The notes under the pieces were generated by a model. That model did not search any database and was not told the DNA's origin. It worked only from the letters and a program-made list of their open reading frames with translations. From the NCBI GenBank assembly GCA_947647555.1, contig CANSKT010000001.1:31969-95968 (forward strand): a stretch of DNA of 64,000 nucleotides, read 5' to 3'. Origin of the DNA: an uncultured Peptococcaceae bacterium (GTDB lineage Bacteria; Bacillota; Dehalobacteriia; UBA4068; UBA4997). The translations under genes were made by a program, and so were the position numbers. Of the stretch, positions 47,757 through 60,685 are shown piece after piece; the stretch's first letter is position 1, and each line of letters starts with the position of its first letter.

Positions 47757-49088
47757 TTAACTGATAACAGCCGCCAGCTGCGCCACATATTTCTGACACA
47801 ACTCGTCAGTAGCGGCCTCCACCATCACGCGCACCACTGGCTCCGTGCCGCTTGGTCGAATTAACACCCGGCCATCGCCGGCCATCTGCTGTTCAATTTC
47901 TGCCGCCAGCTGCTGCAAAACCGGATTTTGCAAAGCCGCTTCTTTCTCCGCCACGCGCACATTCTGCAACAGCTGCGGATAAGTCTTAACCGGCTCGGCC
48001 AGCTTGGAAAGCGGCAGTTTCCGCTCCAGAATAACCTCCATCAGCTTAATGGCCGTCAAAATTCCGTCCCCCGTGGAAGCGTATTTGCTGAAAATAATAT
48101 GCCCGGATTGTTCACCGCCCAGCCGGTGACCGTTTTGCAGCATATTTTCGTAAACAAAGCGGTCGCCCACCGCCGTTTTTTCATAATTAATTTCCGCCGC
48201 GTCAAAAGCCTTATAAAGCCCCAGGTTTGACATAACCGTAGTCACCACGGTATTATTAATCAGCTTGCCGCGCTCTTTCATGTAGCGGCCATAAATATAC
48301 AGAATTTTATCGCCGTCTACCACGTTGCCCTGCTCATCAACCGCCAAACAACGGTCGGCGTCGCCGTCAAAGGCAAAACCAACGTCCAGACTCAACTCCC
48401 GAACCAGATTTTGCAATTCCTCAATATGCGTGGAACCGCAGTTCATGTTAATATTCGTGCCGTCCGGCTCATTGTTGATAGCATAAGTTTTAGCGCCCAG
48501 CGCGTCAAAAATGCTTTTAGCCAGCGCCCAGGCGCTGCCGTTGGCACAATCCAGACCCACGCGCATACCCCGATAAGAACGTATGGCCAGAGAAATCAGA
48601 TAACCCATATAACGGTTGCGGCCGGCGGAATAATCAACCGTGCGGCCAATTTCATCACGCTGCGCCAGCGGCGGCTCCGGCGAGCCGGTGTCCAGATACT
48701 CCTCCAGCCGGGCAATAGTTTCAGCGTCCATTTTTTCACCGCGCTCATTCAGCAGTTTGATGCCGTTATCATAAAACGGGTTATGGCTGGCCGAAATCAT
48801 CAATCCGGCGTCAAAATCCTCCGTCCGCACCACATATGAAACACTGGGCGTGGTGGTTACATGCAGCAAATACGCATCGCCACCGCAGGAAGTTAAACCT
48901 GAAACCAGCGCATATTCCAGCATATAGCTGGAACGCCGCGTATCCTTGCCGATAACAAATTTACAGCGCCGCCCCCGAACCTGACGATAATAGCCGGCCA
49001 GAAAACGGCCGATTTTATAGGCATGCTGCGCCGTCAAATCCACATTGGCTTCACCGCGGAAACCATCTGTGCCAAAATATTTTCCCAT
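47757..49088 (-). CDS. glmM: Phosphoglucosamine mutase
   Basis: KYFGTDGFRGEAN N-terminus, active-site SASHNPFYDNGIK, and GDGDADR-type loop FDGDADRC. The preferred start is the ATG at 49088, after SD gggagga. Confidence 0.92.
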   Translation of the reverse strand: MGKYFGTDGFRGEANVDLTAQHAYKIGRFLAGYYRQVRGRRCKFVIGKDTRRSSYMLEYALVSGLTSCGGDAYLLHVTTTPSVSYVVRTEDFDAGLMISASHNPFYDNGIKLLNERGEKMDAETIARLEEYLDTGSPEPPLAQRDEIGRTVDYSAGRNRYMGYLISLAIRSYRGMRVGLDCANGSAWALAKSIFDALGAKTYAINNEPDGTNINMNCGSTHIEELQNLVRELSLDVGFAFDGDADRCLAVDEQGNVVDGDKILYIYGRYMKERGKLINNTVVTTVMSNLGLYKAFDAAEINYEKTAVGDRFVYENMLQNGHRLGGEQSGHIIFSKYASTGDGILTAIKLMEVILERKLPLSKLAEPVKTYPQLLQNVRVAEKEAALQNPVLQQLAAEIEQQMAGDGRVLIRPSGTEPVVRVMVEAATDELCQKYVAQLAAVIS

Positions 49089-50003: not shown

Positions 50004-50092
50004 GGAGAGGTACCGAAGTGGTCATAACGGAGCGGTCTTGAAAACCGTCGCACAGCAATGTGTCGTGGGTTCGAATCCCACCCTCTCCGCCA
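50004..50092 (+). tRNA. tRNA-Ser (anticodon UGA)
   Basis: Acceptor stem GGAGAGG/CCTCTCC, anticodon loop CTTGAAA, long variable arm, T-loop GGTTCGAATCC, encoded CCA. Confidence 0.9.
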
Positions 50093-50111
50093 AAATCTAC
50101 GCACTTGACAT

Positions 50112-50206
50112 GGAGAGTTGGCCGAGTCGGTCGAAGGCGCTCGCCTGCTAAGCGAGTATACGGGCAAAAACCTGTATCGGGGGTTCGAATCCCCTGCTCT
50201 CCGCCA
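50112..50206 (+). tRNA. tRNA-Ser (anticodon GCU)
   Basis: Acceptor stem GGAGAGT/GCTCTCC, anticodon loop CTGCTAA, long variable arm, T-loop GGTTCGAATCC, encoded CCA. Confidence 0.9.
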
Positions 50207-50241
50207 TTTTTATGGTGTGCGTTACGCAAAACCTGATTTAT

Positions 50242-50318
50242 GTGCTACTAGCTCAGCTGGATAGAGCGTCTGGCTACGGACCAGAAGGTCGGGGGTTCGA
50301 ATCCCTCGTAGCACGCCA
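50242..50318 (+). tRNA. tRNA-Arg (anticodon ACG)
   Basis: Acceptor stem GTGCTAC/GTAGCAC, D-arm GCTCAGCTGGATAGAGC, anticodon loop CTACGGA, T-loop GGTTCGAATCC, encoded CCA. Confidence 0.92.
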
Positions 50319-54999: not shown

Positions 55000-56652
55000 A
55001 TGGAAGATAATGAAAAAGTTATGGCCGGAAATTTTATCCACGACGAAATTGACGCCGACCTGGCCGCCGGTCATGCGCCGGCCGTTCATACGCGTTTTCC
55101 GCCGGAACCCAACGGCTATTTGCATATTGGGCATGCCAAAAGCATTTGCTTAAATTTTGGCACCGCGCAAAAATATAGGGGTCTTTGCAACCTGCGCTTT
55201 GACGATACTAACCCGGCCAAAGAGGAGCAGGAATTTATGGACTCCATTAAAGCCGATGTGCATTGGCTGGGTTTTGATTGGCAGGACCGGCTTTTTTATG
55301 CCTCTGATTATTTTGAACAGATTTATCAATACGCGGTTGAATTGATTAAAGCCGGCAAAGCTTACGTCTGCCAGCTTTCTGCTGATGAGATGCGCGAACA
55401 CCGCGGCAGTATTGGCGTCCCGGCCACATCGCCCTGGCGTGACCGACCAATCGAAGAAAGTTTGGATTTATTTAGCCGTATGCGTGCCGGCGAGTTTGCT
55501 GACGGTGAATATACTTTACGTGCCAAAATTGATTTGGCCTCACCCAATTTTGTTATGCGCGACCCGGTAATTTATCGTATTCAGCATGGCGAGCATAATC
55601 GCACCGGCAACGATTGGTGTATTTATCCTATGTATGATTTTGCCCACCCCATTTCCGACTCCCTGGAGGGCATTACACATTCAATTTGCACTATGGAATT
55701 TGAAATTCACCGTCCGCTTTATGATTGGGTAATTGCTAATACCACTTGTCCCACCAAAAGCCGTCAGATTGAATTTGCGCGCTTAAATCTAACGCATACT
55801 GTAATGAGCAAGCGCTTCCTGCGCCGCCTGGTTGAAGAGGGACAGGTTCGCGGCTGGGACGACCCCAGAATGCCTACCATTTCCGGACTACGCCGCCGTG
55901 GTTATACCCCGGAAGCTATCCGAGATTTTTGCGAGCGCATTGGTGTTGCCAAAGCGGAAAGTATGGTTGACGCCGCTCTGCTTGAGCACTGTTTGCGAGA
56001 GGATTTGAACACGCGAGCTGACCGGGTTATGTGCGTATTGCGTCCACTCAAGGTGGTTATAACAAATTATCCAGAGGACGGCCGCGAAATGCTGCCTATT
56101 GAGAACAATCCTGAAAAGCCGGAACGCGGTAAACGTCTGCTGCCCTTTGGCCGGGAAATTTATATTGAACAGGACGATTTTATGGAGAAACCGCCTAAAA
56201 AGTTTTTCCGCCTGAAACCCGGCGGCGAAGTTCGCTTAAAAGCTGCTTATATCATAAAATGTGAAGATGTTATTAAAGATGATGCTGGCAATATTACTGA
56301 GTTGCATTGTACCTATGACCCAGACACTATCAGCGGTGGCTCCAGCACTAAAAAGGTTAAAGGCACTATCCATTGGGTAAACGCCAAAGAATGTAAAACT
56401 GCCGAGGTTCGTCTTTATGATTATCTATTTACAGAAGATAATCCAACCGCCACAGACGGTGATTTTATGGCAAGCCTGAACCCAAACAGTTTGGAGGTTT
56501 TAACAAACGCCAAAATCGAACCAATTTTACCAATGCCAGCCGAAAAATTTCAGTTTTTGCGTCATGGTTACTTCTGCGTTGACCCTGATACTGAAAATAA
56601 TCACCCTGTATTTAACCGCATTGTATCGCTTAAATCTTCTTTTAAGGCTTAA
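55000..56652 (+). CDS. glnS: Glutaminyl-tRNA synthetase
   Basis: 550 aa. Class I HIGH motif ([14 protein letters not shown]) and the KMSKS variant VMSKR. The GlnRS-type C-terminal anticodon-binding domain is present. Confidence 0.95.
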
Positions 56653-56683
56653 ATTAATATATTTATTCATTTAACAATAAAAT

Positions 56684-56719
56684 AAGGTTCTCCTGTTTTT
56701 ACAGAAGAACCTTATTTTT
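56684..56719 (+). terminator. glnS intrinsic terminator
   Basis: Stem aaggttct / agaacctt followed by attttt. Confidence 0.6.
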
Positions 56720-56806
56720 CCATATTTCTCCAAAAATCTGGCTTTTTCGCAAACAAAGTGTTATAATATACTTACTCACCGTCTCAGGCAGAGAGGAGGT
56801 GTTGTC

Positions 56807-56899
56807 ATGTTTTTTTTAATCTCATTAGCCACTGTTGTTTTGGGTAACATAATCTCTCATTATACTATCAAATGGTTGGACAGCAGATTTGAGCGGTAG
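56807..56899 (+). CDS. Unannotated 30-aa Fst/PepA1-like type I toxin candidate (unit A)
   Basis: ATG at 56807, 8 nt after SD gaggaggtg. Product is MFFLISLATVVLGNIISHYTIKWLDSRFER, then TAG. Extended -10 TGTTATAAT at 56759..56767. The leader hairpin pairs caccgtctc with gagaggaggtg and sequesters the SD. Confidence 0.6.
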   Translation: MFFLISLATVVLGNIISHYTIKWLDSRFER

Positions 56900-56930
56900 T
56901 CAACCTGGGTCTAGGCTGCCCTACTTAGTT

Positions 56931-57011
56931 AAAAGCATAGAAGAACCCCAGTTGCCGCTGGGGTTCTTCGTTTACTCTTTTGATGTTGTCATGAATTTTT
57001 ATTATCTCATT
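56931..57011 (-). ncRNA. Candidate antitoxin RNA, unit A
   Basis: Minus-strand promoter: -35 TTGACA 57046..57041, 17-nt spacer, -10 TATAAT 57023..57018. The RNA 5' part carries the complement of 56984..56993 (tgttgtcatg), a direct repeat of the toxin start region 56800..56809. The 3' end is the 12-bp bidirectional hairpin 56940..56969 plus T-run. Ends are approximate. Confidence 0.5.
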
Positions 57012-57204
57012 GACTTCATTATACCATCAACCCAAAACTTTGTCAAGCATAAAAAAACTACCCCAGCAGATGCCGGAGGAGTTTTTGCCAAACTTTTTAT
57101 AAACACCACTAATATACCAATTTTCCCCAAAAATCTGGCTTTTTCGCATGGGTTATGTTATAATATATACACTAAGCGCCTCTTGGCAGAAAGGAGGTGC
57201 CATA

Positions 57205-57294
57205 ATGAGTACTTTGTTGTCTATAGCTATCGCTATCATGGTAAATATAATCTCCTATTATATTTGCAAATGGTTAGATAGCGGAAGGCGCTAG
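57205..57294 (+). CDS. Unannotated 29-aa Fst/PepA1-like type I toxin candidate (unit B)
   Basis: ATG at 57205, after SD aaaggaggtg. Product is MSTLLSIAIAIMVNIISYYICKWLDSGRR, then TAG. Extended -10 TGTTATAAT at 57156..57164. Leader hairpin gcgcctctt / aaggaggtgc sequesters the SD. Confidence 0.6.
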   Translation: MSTLLSIAIAIMVNIISYYICKWLDSGRR

Positions 57295-57324
57295 GTAACC
57301 TAGGTTTAAGCCACACCTACATAT

Positions 57325-57409
57325 AAGTGGAATAGAAGAACCCCAGTGGCGACTGGGGTTCTTCGTTTTACGTTTTTTGTGCCAGAATAAATACTTTGTT
57401 TTATTGTCT
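57325..57409 (-). ncRNA. Candidate antitoxin RNA, unit B
   Basis: Minus-strand promoter: -35 TTGACA 57444..57439, 17-nt spacer, -10 TATAAT 57421..57416. The RNA 5' part is the complement of 57379..57400, a 19/22 direct repeat of toxin region 57197..57218 in which the ATG is mutated to ATA. The 3' hairpin is 57335..57364. The 3' end is uncertain. Confidence 0.5.
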
Positions 57410-57604
57410 GTCATTATTATATCACCACCAAAACATTTTGTCAAGAAAAAACTCCCCCAGCAGATGCCGGAGGAGTTTTTATTAAACTGTTTTATAAACA
57501 AGATTAATCTTCAAATTGTTCAAGTTTATTATTCAGTTTTTTGGCTTTGTAGCCATCTATTGTTCAAATTAATTTATGAACAATAGATTATTTTTTACTA
57601 GTAA

Positions 57605-60600
57605 TTATTTCAAAATCAATTCGAGAGTTACAGACAATGTTTTACCTTCAACATAATCAAACTCAACTTCACGATTTGTAATTACTTTGCTTTCAGAACC
57701 ATAGGTGGCAATAAGACTTGCAGAAACGTATTCTGAAGAAGGATAGCTGTAGCTACCTTTTACTCTTACCTTGTTATTGCTTATAGTATAAGAAGCATTT
57801 GCACTAGTACCAGCCGGAGCATTAGATACTTCGCGTTCAGTATTATTATTGAACACTAATGTGTAGGTAGGAGTAATATTACCTTTAGAAGTAGAAGAAC
57901 CATTATTACCGTTTTCAACAGTATTATCTCTCGGATATTCGTCAATCAAAACAACATCAGCATAGCCGTCTTTGTCGATTACCGGAATATATACCCAAGC
58001 ATTTCTGGAAACATCGCTCAATGCGCCTTCTCTGTATTTACCAGAATTAGAATCCAGAACGTAAACAATAGTGTTAGCGTCAGTCATAACATTGTAAACA
58101 CCGTTGTCATAAACAGTACCAGTGAATTTATCACTTACTTCTACCTGATCTTTAGTAAGATTACCAGTAACCTCAGCAGCAGTTGCCTTAGCCCAACCTG
58201 CAGCATCTTTATCAATAGAAATCAAACCATCATTGAAACCTGTTACATATCTTGTGTAATCTCTCAGGTTTTTCTTGGTATTGAAAGAGTATACTACTTC
58301 AATCTTGTCGCCGCTCAGCTTGTAAACGATGAAATGATCAGCGCCGCCAGCTTTGCTATCAGTATCCCAATCATATACTTTATCATCGCCTACCAATGTA
58401 ACAGCAACATCATTGCCGCCGGTATGGTCTGCATCGGTGAACTTCCAAGCATTAACAACACCATAATGATAGTTGTTGCTGCTAGAATTGGTATAAGCCA
58501 ATGCTTTAATAGCACCATTGTTATTGGTCTTATAAGAAGCATAAGCACTAATCGGATAGGTGCTAGCAGTACCGTCTACTCTAATACCTGTCAAGTTCTC
58601 AGGAGTGAAATCGCCACCACCCAACAAGGAGGAACGAGTTACCAGAGAAGGATCAACATCAGTATCGTCCTGGCCAACCTCGAAAATGATTACATTAGCA
58701 GCCAAGGAGAACTGTTTGCCAGACATATCTACCAGATATGCATTGTTTTTAACCTGAATTTCAGCATTTGCACCAGAGATATTCATGTTATCGCCAGTAA
58801 ATTCTTTTGCATCATCAGTAGCACCAGGAGTACCAACTTTCAAGAAAGTCTTAATCTCGCCGTTGCTGTTCAATTTGTATTCAACCATCTGACCCATGTA
58901 AGCCTGACCATCTTTTGCACCAGGTTTGGTGGAGCAATTCTTGTCAAAGTCATAGGTTACGGTATAGCCTTCCTGAGTATACAATGTGATAGCATTCATG
59001 TTAGTAGCCCAAGTGCCATTGCTGCCACCGCCGTCTACAACGATACCATACAAAGTAGTACCAGTAGAAGTTTCATCAACAATAATTGCAGATACAGAGT
59101 TATCTTTGTTCAGCAAATATTTTACATTGTTGTTGAATACGTCATCAGTAGAGATACCTGCGCTATCCAGATTTTCTTCATAGAAATCCAAAACGGCAGT
59201 TTCACTGTTGTTGTTCTTGTAAACATAGTTGGTACCACCAATCATTACTTTGTGCTGTTTGGTGTTGCCAGGTTCAGTACCAGAAATGGTAGAAACAGAG
59301 GTACGAGTCAAATCGCCAGAAGCGTCAGCAACCTTAGCATACAATTCGCCTTCTCTGATTTCCATAAGAGCATCGCCAACTTCCAAATCGGAAGGAGAAA
59401 TGAACTTGCCATTATCATAAATCAAAGTATCAGCGTCAGCCATGTTTACAGTCTTGGAACGGCTGTTCTCTGCGTCATTACCAACCAGACGAGCAGAAGC
59501 AGCAGTAATTGTCTTAACATAGTAAGAACGTTCTGTGAAATCACGGTCAGAAACGATACGATAAACCTGGTCGTCATCATTGAAATACATGTAATAACCA
59601 GAGTTTTTGCTATCAGTATTGCTCTGATAAGGATTTCTAACTGCATTGTAGTTAGTTGTATTAACTGTTACCTTGTTGTCTTTTACAACAGGACGGTCAG
59701 TTACTTTCTGAGTATAAGACTCAACTTCGATGAAACGAGCATACAGTTTGCCGTTTTCTTTTACATAGTAAACTTTGCCCTGATGATTTTCCAGGTCAAA
59801 CAAACCAGTAGAATTGTAAGAAACAGCAGTGTTTTCATCAATAATCAATGTGCTGTCATAAGGAACAGTTTCATCAACAACACTGTTGTTATTTGTAGAA
59901 CTTGTAATAGTTCTCTGAGTAACTACATCACCAACAGACCAATTCAGGGTCTTGCCAGCAACGTCACGTACCTGCTCAACTTTGTCAAAGTTGTCTACTT
60001 CCAGATAAGAACCCTCAAAGCTATCTTCCAACAGAGTGATGTAAGAAGAACCGCTCTTTGTGGTCTGTTTGTAAACGAACTCATTGGTGTCTTTATCGTA
60101 AGTAACGATAGCAGTATCCAAAGCTTCGCCCAACATAACAACAACGTCGCCACGTTTAGCAGCAGCGCTAGCTACGATGTTAACATCGTCCAGCAAACCA
60201 ATCTGGTTAGCTTTGGTTACATAGTTTACCGGCCAGCTGCCAGTCAGGTTGTCATTGTAGCCCAACAGACGCAGCAATACGGTAATAGCCTCCTGGTTGG
60301 AGATGGTATCATTCGGACGGAAGTTGCCGTTCTGGTCACCCTTGAAGATGCCCAAGCTTTCAGCAGCATTAATCCAACCGGTGTACCAGCTGTTTGCACG
60401 AACGTCTTTGAAGCTGCTGGCGTTGGCCTCCAACATGGTAGCAGTCTCCTTAGCGCCCGCAGCGGTTACAGCAATTTTAGCAAACTCAGCACGGGTAATC
60501 GTTTTATCCGGACCAAATGTGCCGTCTTCGTAACCTTCAATAATGCCTAACGCAACAGCCTTAGCAATAGCGTCCTGCTCAGTTACTGAGCGCTCGGAAA

Positions 60601-60685
60601 CATCGCTGAATGTAGCTGCGTAGGCACTGGCAGAGAATGCAAACATCATTACAACTGCCAAAAGAACTACGAGTTTCTTTTTCAT
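57605..60685 (-). CDS. SLH-domain S-layer / major surface protein
   Basis: 1026 aa. Signal peptide MKKKLVVLLAVVMMFAFSASAYA, then three N-terminal SLH domains (FSDVSE...GYEDGTFGPDKTITRAEFAKI; FKDVRANSWYTGWINAAESLGIFKGDQNGNFRPNDTISNQEAITVLLR; a third degenerate one). The remainder is T/N/S/V/Y/D/G-rich and beta-rich with no Cys. SD aaggagg upstream. Confidence 0.85.
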   Translation of the reverse strand: MKKKLVVLLAVVMMFAFSASAYAATFSDVSERSVTEQDAIAKAVALGIIEGYEDGTFGPDKTITRAEFAKIAVTAAGAKETATMLEANASSFKDVRANSWYTGWINAAESLGIFKGDQNGNFRPNDTISNQEAITVLLRLLGYNDNLTGSWPVNYVTKANQIGLLDDVNIVASAAAKRGDVVVMLGEALDTAIVTYDKDTNEFVYKQTTKSGSSYITLLEDSFEGSYLEVDNFDKVEQVRDVAGKTLNWSVGDVVTQRTITSSTNNNSVVDETVPYDSTLIIDENTAVSYNSTGLFDLENHQGKVYYVKENGKLYARFIEVESYTQKVTDRPVVKDNKVTVNTTNYNAVRNPYQSNTDSKNSGYYMYFNDDDQVYRIVSDRDFTERSYYVKTITAASARLVGNDAENSRSKTVNMADADTLIYDNGKFISPSDLEVGDALMEIREGELYAKVADASGDLTRTSVSTISGTEPGNTKQHKVMIGGTNYVYKNNNSETAVLDFYEENLDSAGISTDDVFNNNVKYLLNKDNSVSAIIVDETSTGTTLYGIVVDGGGSNGTWATNMNAITLYTQEGYTVTYDFDKNCSTKPGAKDGQAYMGQMVEYKLNSNGEIKTFLKVGTPGATDDAKEFTGDNMNISGANAEIQVKNNAYLVDMSGKQFSLAANVIIFEVGQDDTDVDPSLVTRSSLLGGGDFTPENLTGIRVDGTASTYPISAYASYKTNNNGAIKALAYTNSSSNNYHYGVVNAWKFTDADHTGGNDVAVTLVGDDKVYDWDTDSKAGGADHFIVYKLSGDKIEVVYSFNTKKNLRDYTRYVTGFNDGLISIDKDAAGWAKATAAEVTGNLTKDQVEVSDKFTGTVYDNGVYNVMTDANTIVYVLDSNSGKYREGALSDVSRNAWVYIPVIDKDGYADVVLIDEYPRDNTVENGNNGSSTSKGNITPTYTLVFNNNTEREVSNAPAGTSANASYTISNNKVRVKGSYSYPSSEYVSASLIATYGSESKVITNREVEFDYVEGKTLSVTLELILK

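Follow-up and report, generated by a model that had tools for sequence, protein, structure and literature searches.

A tandem pair of predicted par-type toxin-antitoxin modules encoding divergent Fst-like peptides in an uncultured Peptococcaceae bacterium

The par loci are a well-known kind of type I toxin-antitoxin system whose architecture consists of convergent promoters, a bidirectional terminator and direct repeats, DRa and DRb, over the translation initiation region (PMC7472228). In the toxin messenger, RNA I, a 5' stem-loop hides the Shine-Dalgarno sequence (SD) and an upstream helix hides the 5' end, while a U-turn is not universal (PMC7472228). Repeats are poorly conserved between pAD1 and EF0409, probably reflecting specificity, and a large antitoxin excess has been reported for parEF0409 and SprA1 (PMC7472228). 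Members of the Fst/Ldr peptide superfamily are marked by a tryptophan between a hydrophobic helix and a charged C-terminus, and the majority carry a P/D/S/TXXXG(C) motif inside the helix (Weaver 2020, PMC7472228). Mutagenesis of FstpAD1 identified the Pro and Gly of its PXXXG motif as essential for toxicity, and a Streptococcus pneumoniae Fst clade carries a DXXXG motif (PMC7472228). The par family members considered here are pAD1 Fst/RNA I/RNA II, parEF0409, SprA1/SprA1AS (PepA1), Fst-Sm/srSm and Lpt, with E. faecalis, S. aureus (SprA1), S. mutans (Fst-Sm) and L. rhamnosus (Lpt) as hosts. We analyzed a 64,000-nucleotide stretch of DNA, from now on referred to as the window, from an uncultured Peptococcaceae bacterium (GenBank assembly GCA_947647555.1, contig CANSKT010000001.1). 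It contains two tandem units of about 395 bp, each of which, judging by its sequence features, very likely represents a par-type (Fst/RNA II-like) type I toxin-antitoxin module. The architecture is not new, and what sets these modules apart is that their branch is missed by curated models and annotation.

The two units, A (about 56713-57110) and B (about 57110-57505), lie in the intergenic region between glnS (55000..56652, plus strand) and a convergent gene on the minus strand (60685..57605) encoding a 1026-amino-acid (aa) protein with SLH domains (Pfam SLH, E 2.9e-26). Repeat families and pairwise alignment give a start-to-start spacing of 394-398 bp. Each unit consists, in this order, of a 22-nt box, an extended -10 element, a leader of ~33 nt, a GGAGG SD, a short open reading frame (ORF), a GC-rich hairpin and a copy of the initiation region, followed by a TTGACA-17-TATAAT promoter with TG on the minus strand and an A-run/hairpin/T-run. 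When units A and B are aligned, the functional blocks are conserved, and the stop-to-terminator spacer and both repeat copies have diverged. Both the box, CCAAAAATCTGGCTTTTTCGCA, and the hairpin, GAAGAACCCCAG-N6-CTGGGGTTCTTC, occur exactly twice in the window, with 0.00 copies expected from shuffles. A preliminary description of this DNA had proposed two repeat units of ~390 bp, each with a conserved box and extended -10, a leader hairpin sequestering the SD, an ORF of 29-30 codons, a 12-bp hairpin usable as a terminator on both strands, a consensus minus-strand promoter, an outer hairpin and an antisense RNA starting within a repeat of the toxin start, and had likened the whole to pAD1 par. 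This layout was recovered in full apart from the terminator of unit B, whose hairpin is flagged on the plus strand only. Further, the par hallmarks named in the review (PMC7472228) are present in the sequence and recur in independent metagenome, plasmid and phage modules. The features of the two units, with all transcripts predicted, are as follows.

56730..56751, plus strand: unit A box CCAAAAATCTGGCTTTTTCGCA, exact copy
56759..56767, plus strand: unit A toxin (RNA I) promoter, extended -10 TGTTATAAT, no good -35
56774..56979, plus strand: unit A predicted toxin mRNA (RNA I), ~206 nt, ends placed from the -10 and the terminator
56774..56785, plus strand: unit A leader arms, long-range 5' arm plus anti-SD
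56800..56826, plus strand: unit A direct-repeat copy 1, covering SD end, start codon and first 6 codons; predicted antisense target
56807..56899, plus strand: unit A toxin ORF, 30 aa, MFFLISLATVVLGNIISHYTIKWLDSRFER, with TXXXG (T9-G13) and W23
56930..57011, minus strand: unit A predicted antitoxin RNA (RNA II), ~82 nt, putative ends
56940..56969, both strands: unit A shared central hairpin, 12-13 bp, terminator-like on plus and minus
56984..57011, plus strand: unit A direct-repeat copy 2, whose minus-strand transcript would be the antisense 5' segment
57018..57046, minus strand: unit A antitoxin promoter TTGACA-17-TATAAT, 12/12, with TG
57053..57086, no strand assigned: unit A outer A-run/hairpin/T-run, flagged as minus-strand terminator
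57127..57148, plus strand: unit B box CCAAAAATCTGGCTTTTTCGCA, exact copy
57156..57164, plus strand: unit B toxin promoter, extended -10 TGTTATAAT, identical to unit A
57171..57375, plus strand: unit B predicted toxin mRNA (RNA I), ~205 nt
57196..57223, plus strand: unit B direct-repeat copy 1, covering SD end, start codon and first codons
57205..57294, plus strand: unit B toxin ORF, 29 aa, MSTLLSIAIAIMVNIISYYICKWLDSGRR, with W22 and no XXXG motif
57325..57409, minus strand: unit B predicted antitoxin RNA (RNA II), ~85 nt
57335..57364, no strand assigned: unit B shared central hairpin, 13 bp, flagged on plus only
57379..57400, plus strand: unit B direct-repeat copy 2, ATG changed to ATA
57416..57444, minus strand: unit B antitoxin promoter TTGACA-17-TATAAT, 12/12, with TG
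57447..57480, no strand assigned: unit B outer hairpin, facing the convergent S-layer gene

The two copies of the direct repeat within a unit are similar enough for the predicted antisense RNA to pair with the start region of the toxin mRNA. In unit A, 56800-56816 is 88% identical to 56984-57000 and 56811-56826 is 88% identical to 56996-57011, while in unit B 57197-57218 matches 57379-57400 at 19/22 positions (86%), as described previously. RNAduplex energies for the antisense RNAs on their own initiation regions are -29.7 kcal/mol (A, 56797-56827) and -30.5 kcal/mol (B, 57196-57223), compared with -18.2 and -13.0 kcal/mol when either RNA is placed on the other unit and -14 +/- 3 kcal/mol for shuffles. 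As the repeats differ between units A and B, each antitoxin should control its own toxin only. In its predicted fold, the antisense RNA of unit A has little structure in its 5' part, downstream of which the terminator hairpin forms, and the 5' 45 nt of its unit B counterpart are predicted to be unstructured. The same cognate relationship is found in related modules. Using Smith-Waterman alignment, the initiation region (-16..+30) of each of 27 modules was compared with its own downstream 290 nt, and 702 non-cognate pairs served as background. Cognate scores lie above the 99th percentile of the non-cognate pairs (25, with a mean of 16.1) in 21 of the 27 modules, units A and B scoring 35 and 29, respectively. 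ORF and repeat complementarity, whose absence from related genomes would according to the preliminary description have spoken against its proposal, are thus conserved in relatives. In an independent set of 20 distinct modules from phage contigs, all cognate scores are at least 28 and the non-cognate mean is 18.7. Inspection by eye of modules from a related chromosomal locus (L081), E. faecalis plasmid pE035 and Clostridium perfringens plasmid p21-D-5b revealed the same order of parts, with differing repeats that each match their own start region.

Convergent promoters for toxin mRNA and antitoxin RNA are predicted in both units and this arrangement recurs in related modules; promoters and terminators of the locus were identified as consensus matches in sequence. 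Most of the 27 modules have a TGnTATAAT-like -10 equally far from the start codon. The two 12/12 antitoxin promoters are the only perfect matches to TTGACA-17-TATAAT in the region, and in most related modules a TTGACA-like-17-TATAAT promoter on the minus strand is found just beyond the repeat. The conserved box probably belongs to the toxin promoter, as an upstream or -35-region element, and a partly conserved counterpart (CCCAAAATATT..ATTTTATTAC) precedes each module of the related locus L089. The box was also considered as a sigma-54 promoter (TGGC-N-GCA), a reading rejected because its GG-to-GC spacing is 7 nt and not 10. The stem of the predicted terminator carries compensatory changes among six close modules; on the minus strand, the central hairpin of unit A is the only central hairpin to pass a simple terminator rule. 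The outer hairpins probably act as transcriptional insulators, one toward the next unit and the other toward the S-layer gene. On pE035, an analogous outer hairpin is located upstream of the antitoxin promoter.

The toxin mRNAs are predicted to be extensively folded (unit A -57.7 kcal/mol; unit B -75.3 kcal/mol, with its 5' end paired to the stop-codon region). In unit A, the 5' arm ACTCACCG (56774-56781) pairs with CGGTAGT (56894-56900) and the anti-SD CGTCTC (56780-56785) with GAGGTG (56796-56801). RNAalifold was applied to six close modules, namely the two window units, the first module of L081 (L081a) and three modules from L089. The resulting consensus pairs CGCCUC of the leader with GAGGUG of the SD and further contains stems inside the coding region and the terminator. 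Most leaders carry an anti-SD of the form CCTC(C), and covariation in the SD stem is slight because the SD is invariant. The long-range helix is maintained by different sequences in different modules, with 5' and stop-codon arms as follows:

Unit B: CTAAGCGCC / GGCGCTAG
L089: CTATCGC / GCGATAG
pE035: GCTATC / GATAGC
L097: GTCGTTT / AAACGAC

In the six-module alignment, all 30 of the 30 cells of this helix are paired, compared with 10-53% in slid controls, and one pair covaries (UA in three modules, CG in two and GC in one). Across 25 modules, cognate leader/stop duplexes have a mean energy of -8.9 kcal/mol versus -6.4 kcal/mol for non-cognate ones, and the observed mean was reached in 0 of 5000 permutations. 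This result is conservative, since the fixed 18-nt leader window missed the arm in five modules (L087, L091, L092, L099 and L102). As predicted structures, the SD stem and the helix between 5' end and stop codon correspond to the elements 5'-SL and 5'-UH of par RNA I.

Sequence comparison indicates that the 29-30 aa ORFs are genuine and probably translated. Both follow a GGAGG SD (56795-56799 in unit A), and nearly all modules have an SD of this type 5-8 nt upstream of their start codon (ATG, GTG or TTG). The frame of ORF B can be extended to a 48-aa ORF starting with an ATG at 57148, which has no SD. Across 25 modules, an invariant Leu is encoded by all six of its codons, which argues for selection at the protein level; synonymous variation is further seen for Asp (GAC 10, GAT 14), Tyr (TAT 6, TAC 18) and Lys (AAA 21, AAG 4). 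Mean Kyte-Doolittle hydropathy of residues 1-21 is +1.70 in peptide A and +1.88 in peptide B, and that of the remainder -1.67 and -1.84, respectively. The tryptophan is located between hydrophobic helix and charged tail (...TIK-W23-LDSRFER in A, ...ICK-W22-LDSGRR in B) and is nearly invariant in an alignment of 59 family members. Tails are short, with 4 charged residues in A and 3 in B. The helix of peptide A holds T9-V-V-L-G13, a TXXXG motif. An exhaustive profile search of 1.84 billion representatives returned 133 clusters (50% identity) at E<=1e-3. Most members with the KWLD motif are 29-35 aa long or represent the same peptide with a spurious N-terminal extension, and the family consensus reads (A/G)N(V/I)(I/V)S(Y/H)Y(I/V)(C/I)KWLD(S/G/R), followed by a short charged tail. 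In many members, ANV(I/V)S replaces the P/D/S/TXXXG motif. One representative (P0001) is 77% identical to peptide A, and another (P0002) is B-like. None of ten family representatives checked carries a name in any source, an exact look-up of peptide A returned no record, a word-indexed protein search with both peptides concatenated gave no match, and the motifs ICKWLD, IIKWLD and VCKWLD were not found in a literature search.

On this basis, the window peptides can be regarded as members of a divergent "KWLD" branch of the Fst/Ldr superfamily. The preliminary description had called them Fst-like, which was borne out at the level of the family. When the 59 KWLD peptides were aligned as a profile against six plasmid toxins annotated in RefSeq as "type I toxin-antitoxin system Fst family toxin", including the pTEF1 Fst copy, hhalign gave a probability of 91.3% (E 9.3e-7, 31 columns), a value to be read with the short, compositionally biased helices in mind. 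C-termini are also alike, with ...SRWLDEKDDN and ...AYWLDKRDDN in annotated plasmid Fst toxins and ...KWLDSGDDDN in many KWLD members. Six of the 59 members match NCBIfam NF033608 type_I_tox_Fst (cut-off 26 bits) with a best E of 5.5e-5, and four match Pfam Ldr_toxin weakly. For the two units themselves, the Fst/Ldr profile and covariance-model searches that had been suggested as a check gave no match of either peptide to a curated Fst/Ldr model, while the mRNAs matched Rfam RF02442, SpF66_sRNA, below its threshold. The unit B mRNA aligns to this model over its full length (57168-57374 to model positions 1-239) with 33.8 bits (gathering score 42) and an E of 7.9e-6, while unit A scores 18.5 bits. 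The alignment includes the coding part ...CAAAUGG(U/C)UAGA... (K W L D) as well as the terminator. The RF02442 consensus itself contains an SD and a 32-codon ORF, MSLILELVLTIIADVIAGIILYFVCKWLDGKE, that ends in CKWLDGKE, has a DXXXG motif and matches the NCBIfam Fst model (E 1e-3). Although classified as a Streptococcus small RNA (sRNA), SpF66 thus has the appearance of an mRNA for an Fst-type toxin rather than of a non-coding RNA, and it probably corresponds to the DXXXG Fst clade of S. pneumoniae (PMC7472228). A literature search on the name SpF66 returned malaria-vaccine papers only. Other sub-threshold Rfam matches (BSnc120, OrzO-P, MicC and various leaders) were disregarded as driven by terminator hairpins.

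KWLD peptides are encoded on chromosomes, plasmids and phage contigs. A tblastn search with peptide B identified 352 plasmid records, 318 of them from Enterococcus; among the matches listed, no feature is annotated under the peptide B match, whereas canonical Fst matches are annotated in RefSeq records. Complete KWLD-type par-like modules are present at unannotated sites on pE035 (L087 1380-1790) and p21-D-5b (L088 1440-1740). Further, 38 viral or prophage contigs from IMG/VR (L120-L157) encode KWLD peptides, mostly of the form ...GGV(I/A)CHYIIKWLDGDK. The nearest relatives of the window units sit at other chromosomal sites, again in tandem arrays. L081 has two modules between an ABC-F gene and a glycosyltransferase gene, and L089 three in the fetched part (1001-1906). 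The first 290 nt of L089 match window positions 48043..47762 at 75%, so this locus comes from a related organism. Six modules were counted in L159 (2057-4501), seven in L158 (2057-4901) and eight in L160 (1648-5004). Arrays of three to eight modules in the same orientation adjoin a gene of the phosphoglucomutase family, including one in the NCBI metagenome-assembled genome (MAG) GCA_948653165.1. Generally, copy number varies from two to eight between close relatives and differs between samples. Within the L159 array, predicted pairing is always strongest between an antisense side and its own target (-36 to -41 versus -19 to -30 kcal/mol). In L160 (2990-3430), one antisense side fits the following module's start region (-35.0 kcal/mol) better than that of its own module (-21.1 kcal/mol), which points either to a recombination event that left a mismatched antitoxin or to chimeric assembly of the repeats.

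Tandem orthogonal arrays of this kind represent a convenient natural set for studying the evolution of antisense specificity. It is conceivable, yet unlikely, that KWLD modules form expandable tandem arrays of orthogonal cassettes that work as one regulated unit and are not independent selfish cassettes. If so, an array might for example be used against phage, sensing the shut-off of transcription in the manner of a multi-fuse device. A common regulator would act through the conserved box, and each cassette would have its private repeat "address" and insulator.

Several observations weigh against reading the units as par-type toxin-antitoxin modules. Peptide B has neither a P/D/S/TXXXG motif nor a Gly in its helix, and the window peptides match no Pfam or NCBIfam family at E<=10 except for one chance transporter match. 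In the region, all Rfam matches stay below the gathering score of their family. At the RNA level, unit B has a poor U-tract on the antisense side (UAUUCCACUU), so that its minus strand fails the simple terminator rule, and the terminator loops contain no YUNR U-turn on either the toxin strand (UUGCCG in A, UGGCGA in B) or the antisense strand (CGGCAA, UCGCCA). In six of the 27 modules, the cognate repeat score fails to rise above those of non-cognate pairs. Finally, the anti-SD stem and the 5'-end helix overlap by 2 nt in the window units and may therefore be partly alternative.

The alternative that survives best, though we consider it decidedly improbable, is that the peptides are antisense-regulated small membrane proteins and not toxins, which would modulate membrane complexes, the envelope or S-layer biogenesis. 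Its appeal lies in the PXXXG motif, which is essential in FstpAD1 and absent from peptide B and many family members, and in the obscure function of chromosomal par homologues (PMC7472228). However, occurrence in plasmid records, phage contigs and unrelated chromosomal sites is the distribution of an addiction or defence cassette, copy number varies between close relatives, the family profile matches Fst toxins, and a harmful product would be expected to come with the kind of design seen here, in which the antitoxin has by far the stronger promoter. Very improbable is also that the modules are decaying or silenced toxin-antitoxin relics without function in this genome. The weak U-tract of unit B, the missing XXXG motif of peptide B and a degenerate third box at 57534-57553, which suggests past loss of a unit, would fit such decay. 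Yet both ORFs are intact and preceded by strong SDs, both antitoxin promoters are perfect consensus, both repeats still give cognate duplexes of about -30 kcal/mol, and it is the functional blocks that are most conserved between units A and B while the spacers have diverged. A non-coding terminator or insulator repeat with accidental short ORFs and promoters, or a real gene corresponding to the 130-aa ORF at 56889..57281, is hardly credible: the region does lie between two convergent genes, is rich in hairpins and was scanned by consensus matching, but the peptide recurs in 133 clusters and shows synonymous codon changes, and its modules are found in quite dissimilar settings. Moreover, the 130-aa frame, already dismissed as spurious in the preliminary description, runs through terminator, antisense promoter, outer hairpin and unit B promoter, and the long ORFs of L089 differ in position and length.

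Taking the units as par-type toxin-antitoxin modules, we infer the ends of the predicted RNAs, their pairing in vivo, the toxicity of the peptides and their physiological role from the sequence, as follows. A weak promoter, consisting of an extended -10 without a good -35, would give rise to a ~205-nt mRNA for a membrane peptide of 29-30 aa. This mRNA would be silenced twice, through pairing of its 5' end with the stop-codon region and through the leader anti-SD lying on the SD. The convergent perfect-consensus promoter would direct synthesis of a ~80-nt antisense RNA, and given the strength of this consensus the antitoxin RNA is probably in excess. With its 3' half, the antisense RNA would be complementary to the terminator hairpin of the toxin mRNA, so that first contact could be made through the complementary terminator loops. 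Its 5' half, being transcribed across the repeat copy, could base-pair with the toxin mRNA from the end of the SD through the first ~6 codons, start codon included, and pairing there may block ribosome binding. If the antitoxin RNA is degraded or no longer made, translation of the peptide would set in, and insertion of the peptide into the membrane would arrest growth.

The wider surroundings of the locus are chromosomal in character, with tRNAs (50004-50315), an SbcC-like ATPase and a DtxR/MntR-type repressor. Directly after the glnS stop codon and abutting unit A, a hairpin with 18-nt arms that are 94% complementary (56679-56718) is likely the glnS terminator. At the other end, a degenerate third copy of the upstream box (CAGTTTTTTGGCTTTGTAGC, 57534-57553) is found at the expected spacing after unit B, followed by a perfect 12-bp hairpin (57555-57588) just downstream of the S-layer gene stop. 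Together, 57534-57588 possibly represent the remnant of a lost third unit and the S-layer gene terminator. The best match of GlnS (55000-56652) among 185,579 species representatives is only 66% identical, so the source lineage is poorly represented among them; the best matches come from Bacillota and Syntrophomonadaceae MAGs, Schwartzia and Selenomonas. A scan aimed at syntenic relatives detected no module at any of 80 GlnS loci of other genomes. A weak tblastn match, LVSYFLCRWL (E 0.13), lies near glnS in a Veillonella sp. MAG (L058 953-982) and may be another small Fst-like ORF or due to chance.

The locus contributes a probable par-type system from a scarcely sampled lineage of the Bacillota and opens no new mechanism. 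Its wider relevance lies in a sizeable Fst-like branch that is invisible to Pfam and NCBIfam models and one relative of which is filed in Rfam as a non-coding sRNA. A family model would allow annotation pipelines to call KWLD cassettes and help to avoid spurious ORFs such as the 130-aa one.

Among known systems, the type I toxins of Clostridioides difficile (NCBIfam NF047374 CD_typeI_toxin) are likewise antisense-controlled small hydrophobic peptides, from Clostridia. Six of the 59 KWLD members match this 51-residue model (cut-off 60 bits) weakly and in the helix only, with a best E of 6e-4, and the window peptides give no match. The Ldr toxins of E. coli share the Fst/Ldr superfamily signature with the window peptides. 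The ldr loci, too, are tandem direct repeats of ~500 bp (LDR-A, -B and -C), each with its own toxin and antisense RNA. Their regulation resembles that of hok/sok and not that of par (PMC7472228). SpF66 comes closer, as it aligns with the whole unit B mRNA including the KWLD codons, if below the gathering threshold and under an sRNA label. Compared with the pAD1 par family, several differences are apparent. Peptides of the KWLD branch fall below NCBIfam and Pfam thresholds, and the PXXXG motif of Fst is replaced by TXXXG in peptide A and absent from peptide B. Instead of separate DRa and DRb, the window repeat is a single block of ~22-28 nt with an indel or mismatches. Further, the terminator loops lack a U-turn, and the window units add an outer insulator hairpin, a promoter-upstream box and a tandem arrangement. 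The similarities to the pAD1 par family comprise the predicted convergent promoters, a toxin mRNA of ~200 nt, a short antisense RNA and a shared hairpin. Direct repeats would be transcribed in opposite directions, giving complementarity over SD and start codon, and both the SD, through the leader, and the extreme 5' end are predicted to be sequestered. As in Fst, the window peptides comprise ~30 aa with a hydrophobic helix, a Trp and a charged tail, and many KWLD members end in ...WLD..DN like annotated plasmid Fst toxins. The repeats vary between KWLD modules, as they do between par loci, which probably confers specificity, and antitoxin promoters that, by consensus, are much stronger than the toxin promoters parallel the antitoxin excess of parEF0409 and SprA1.

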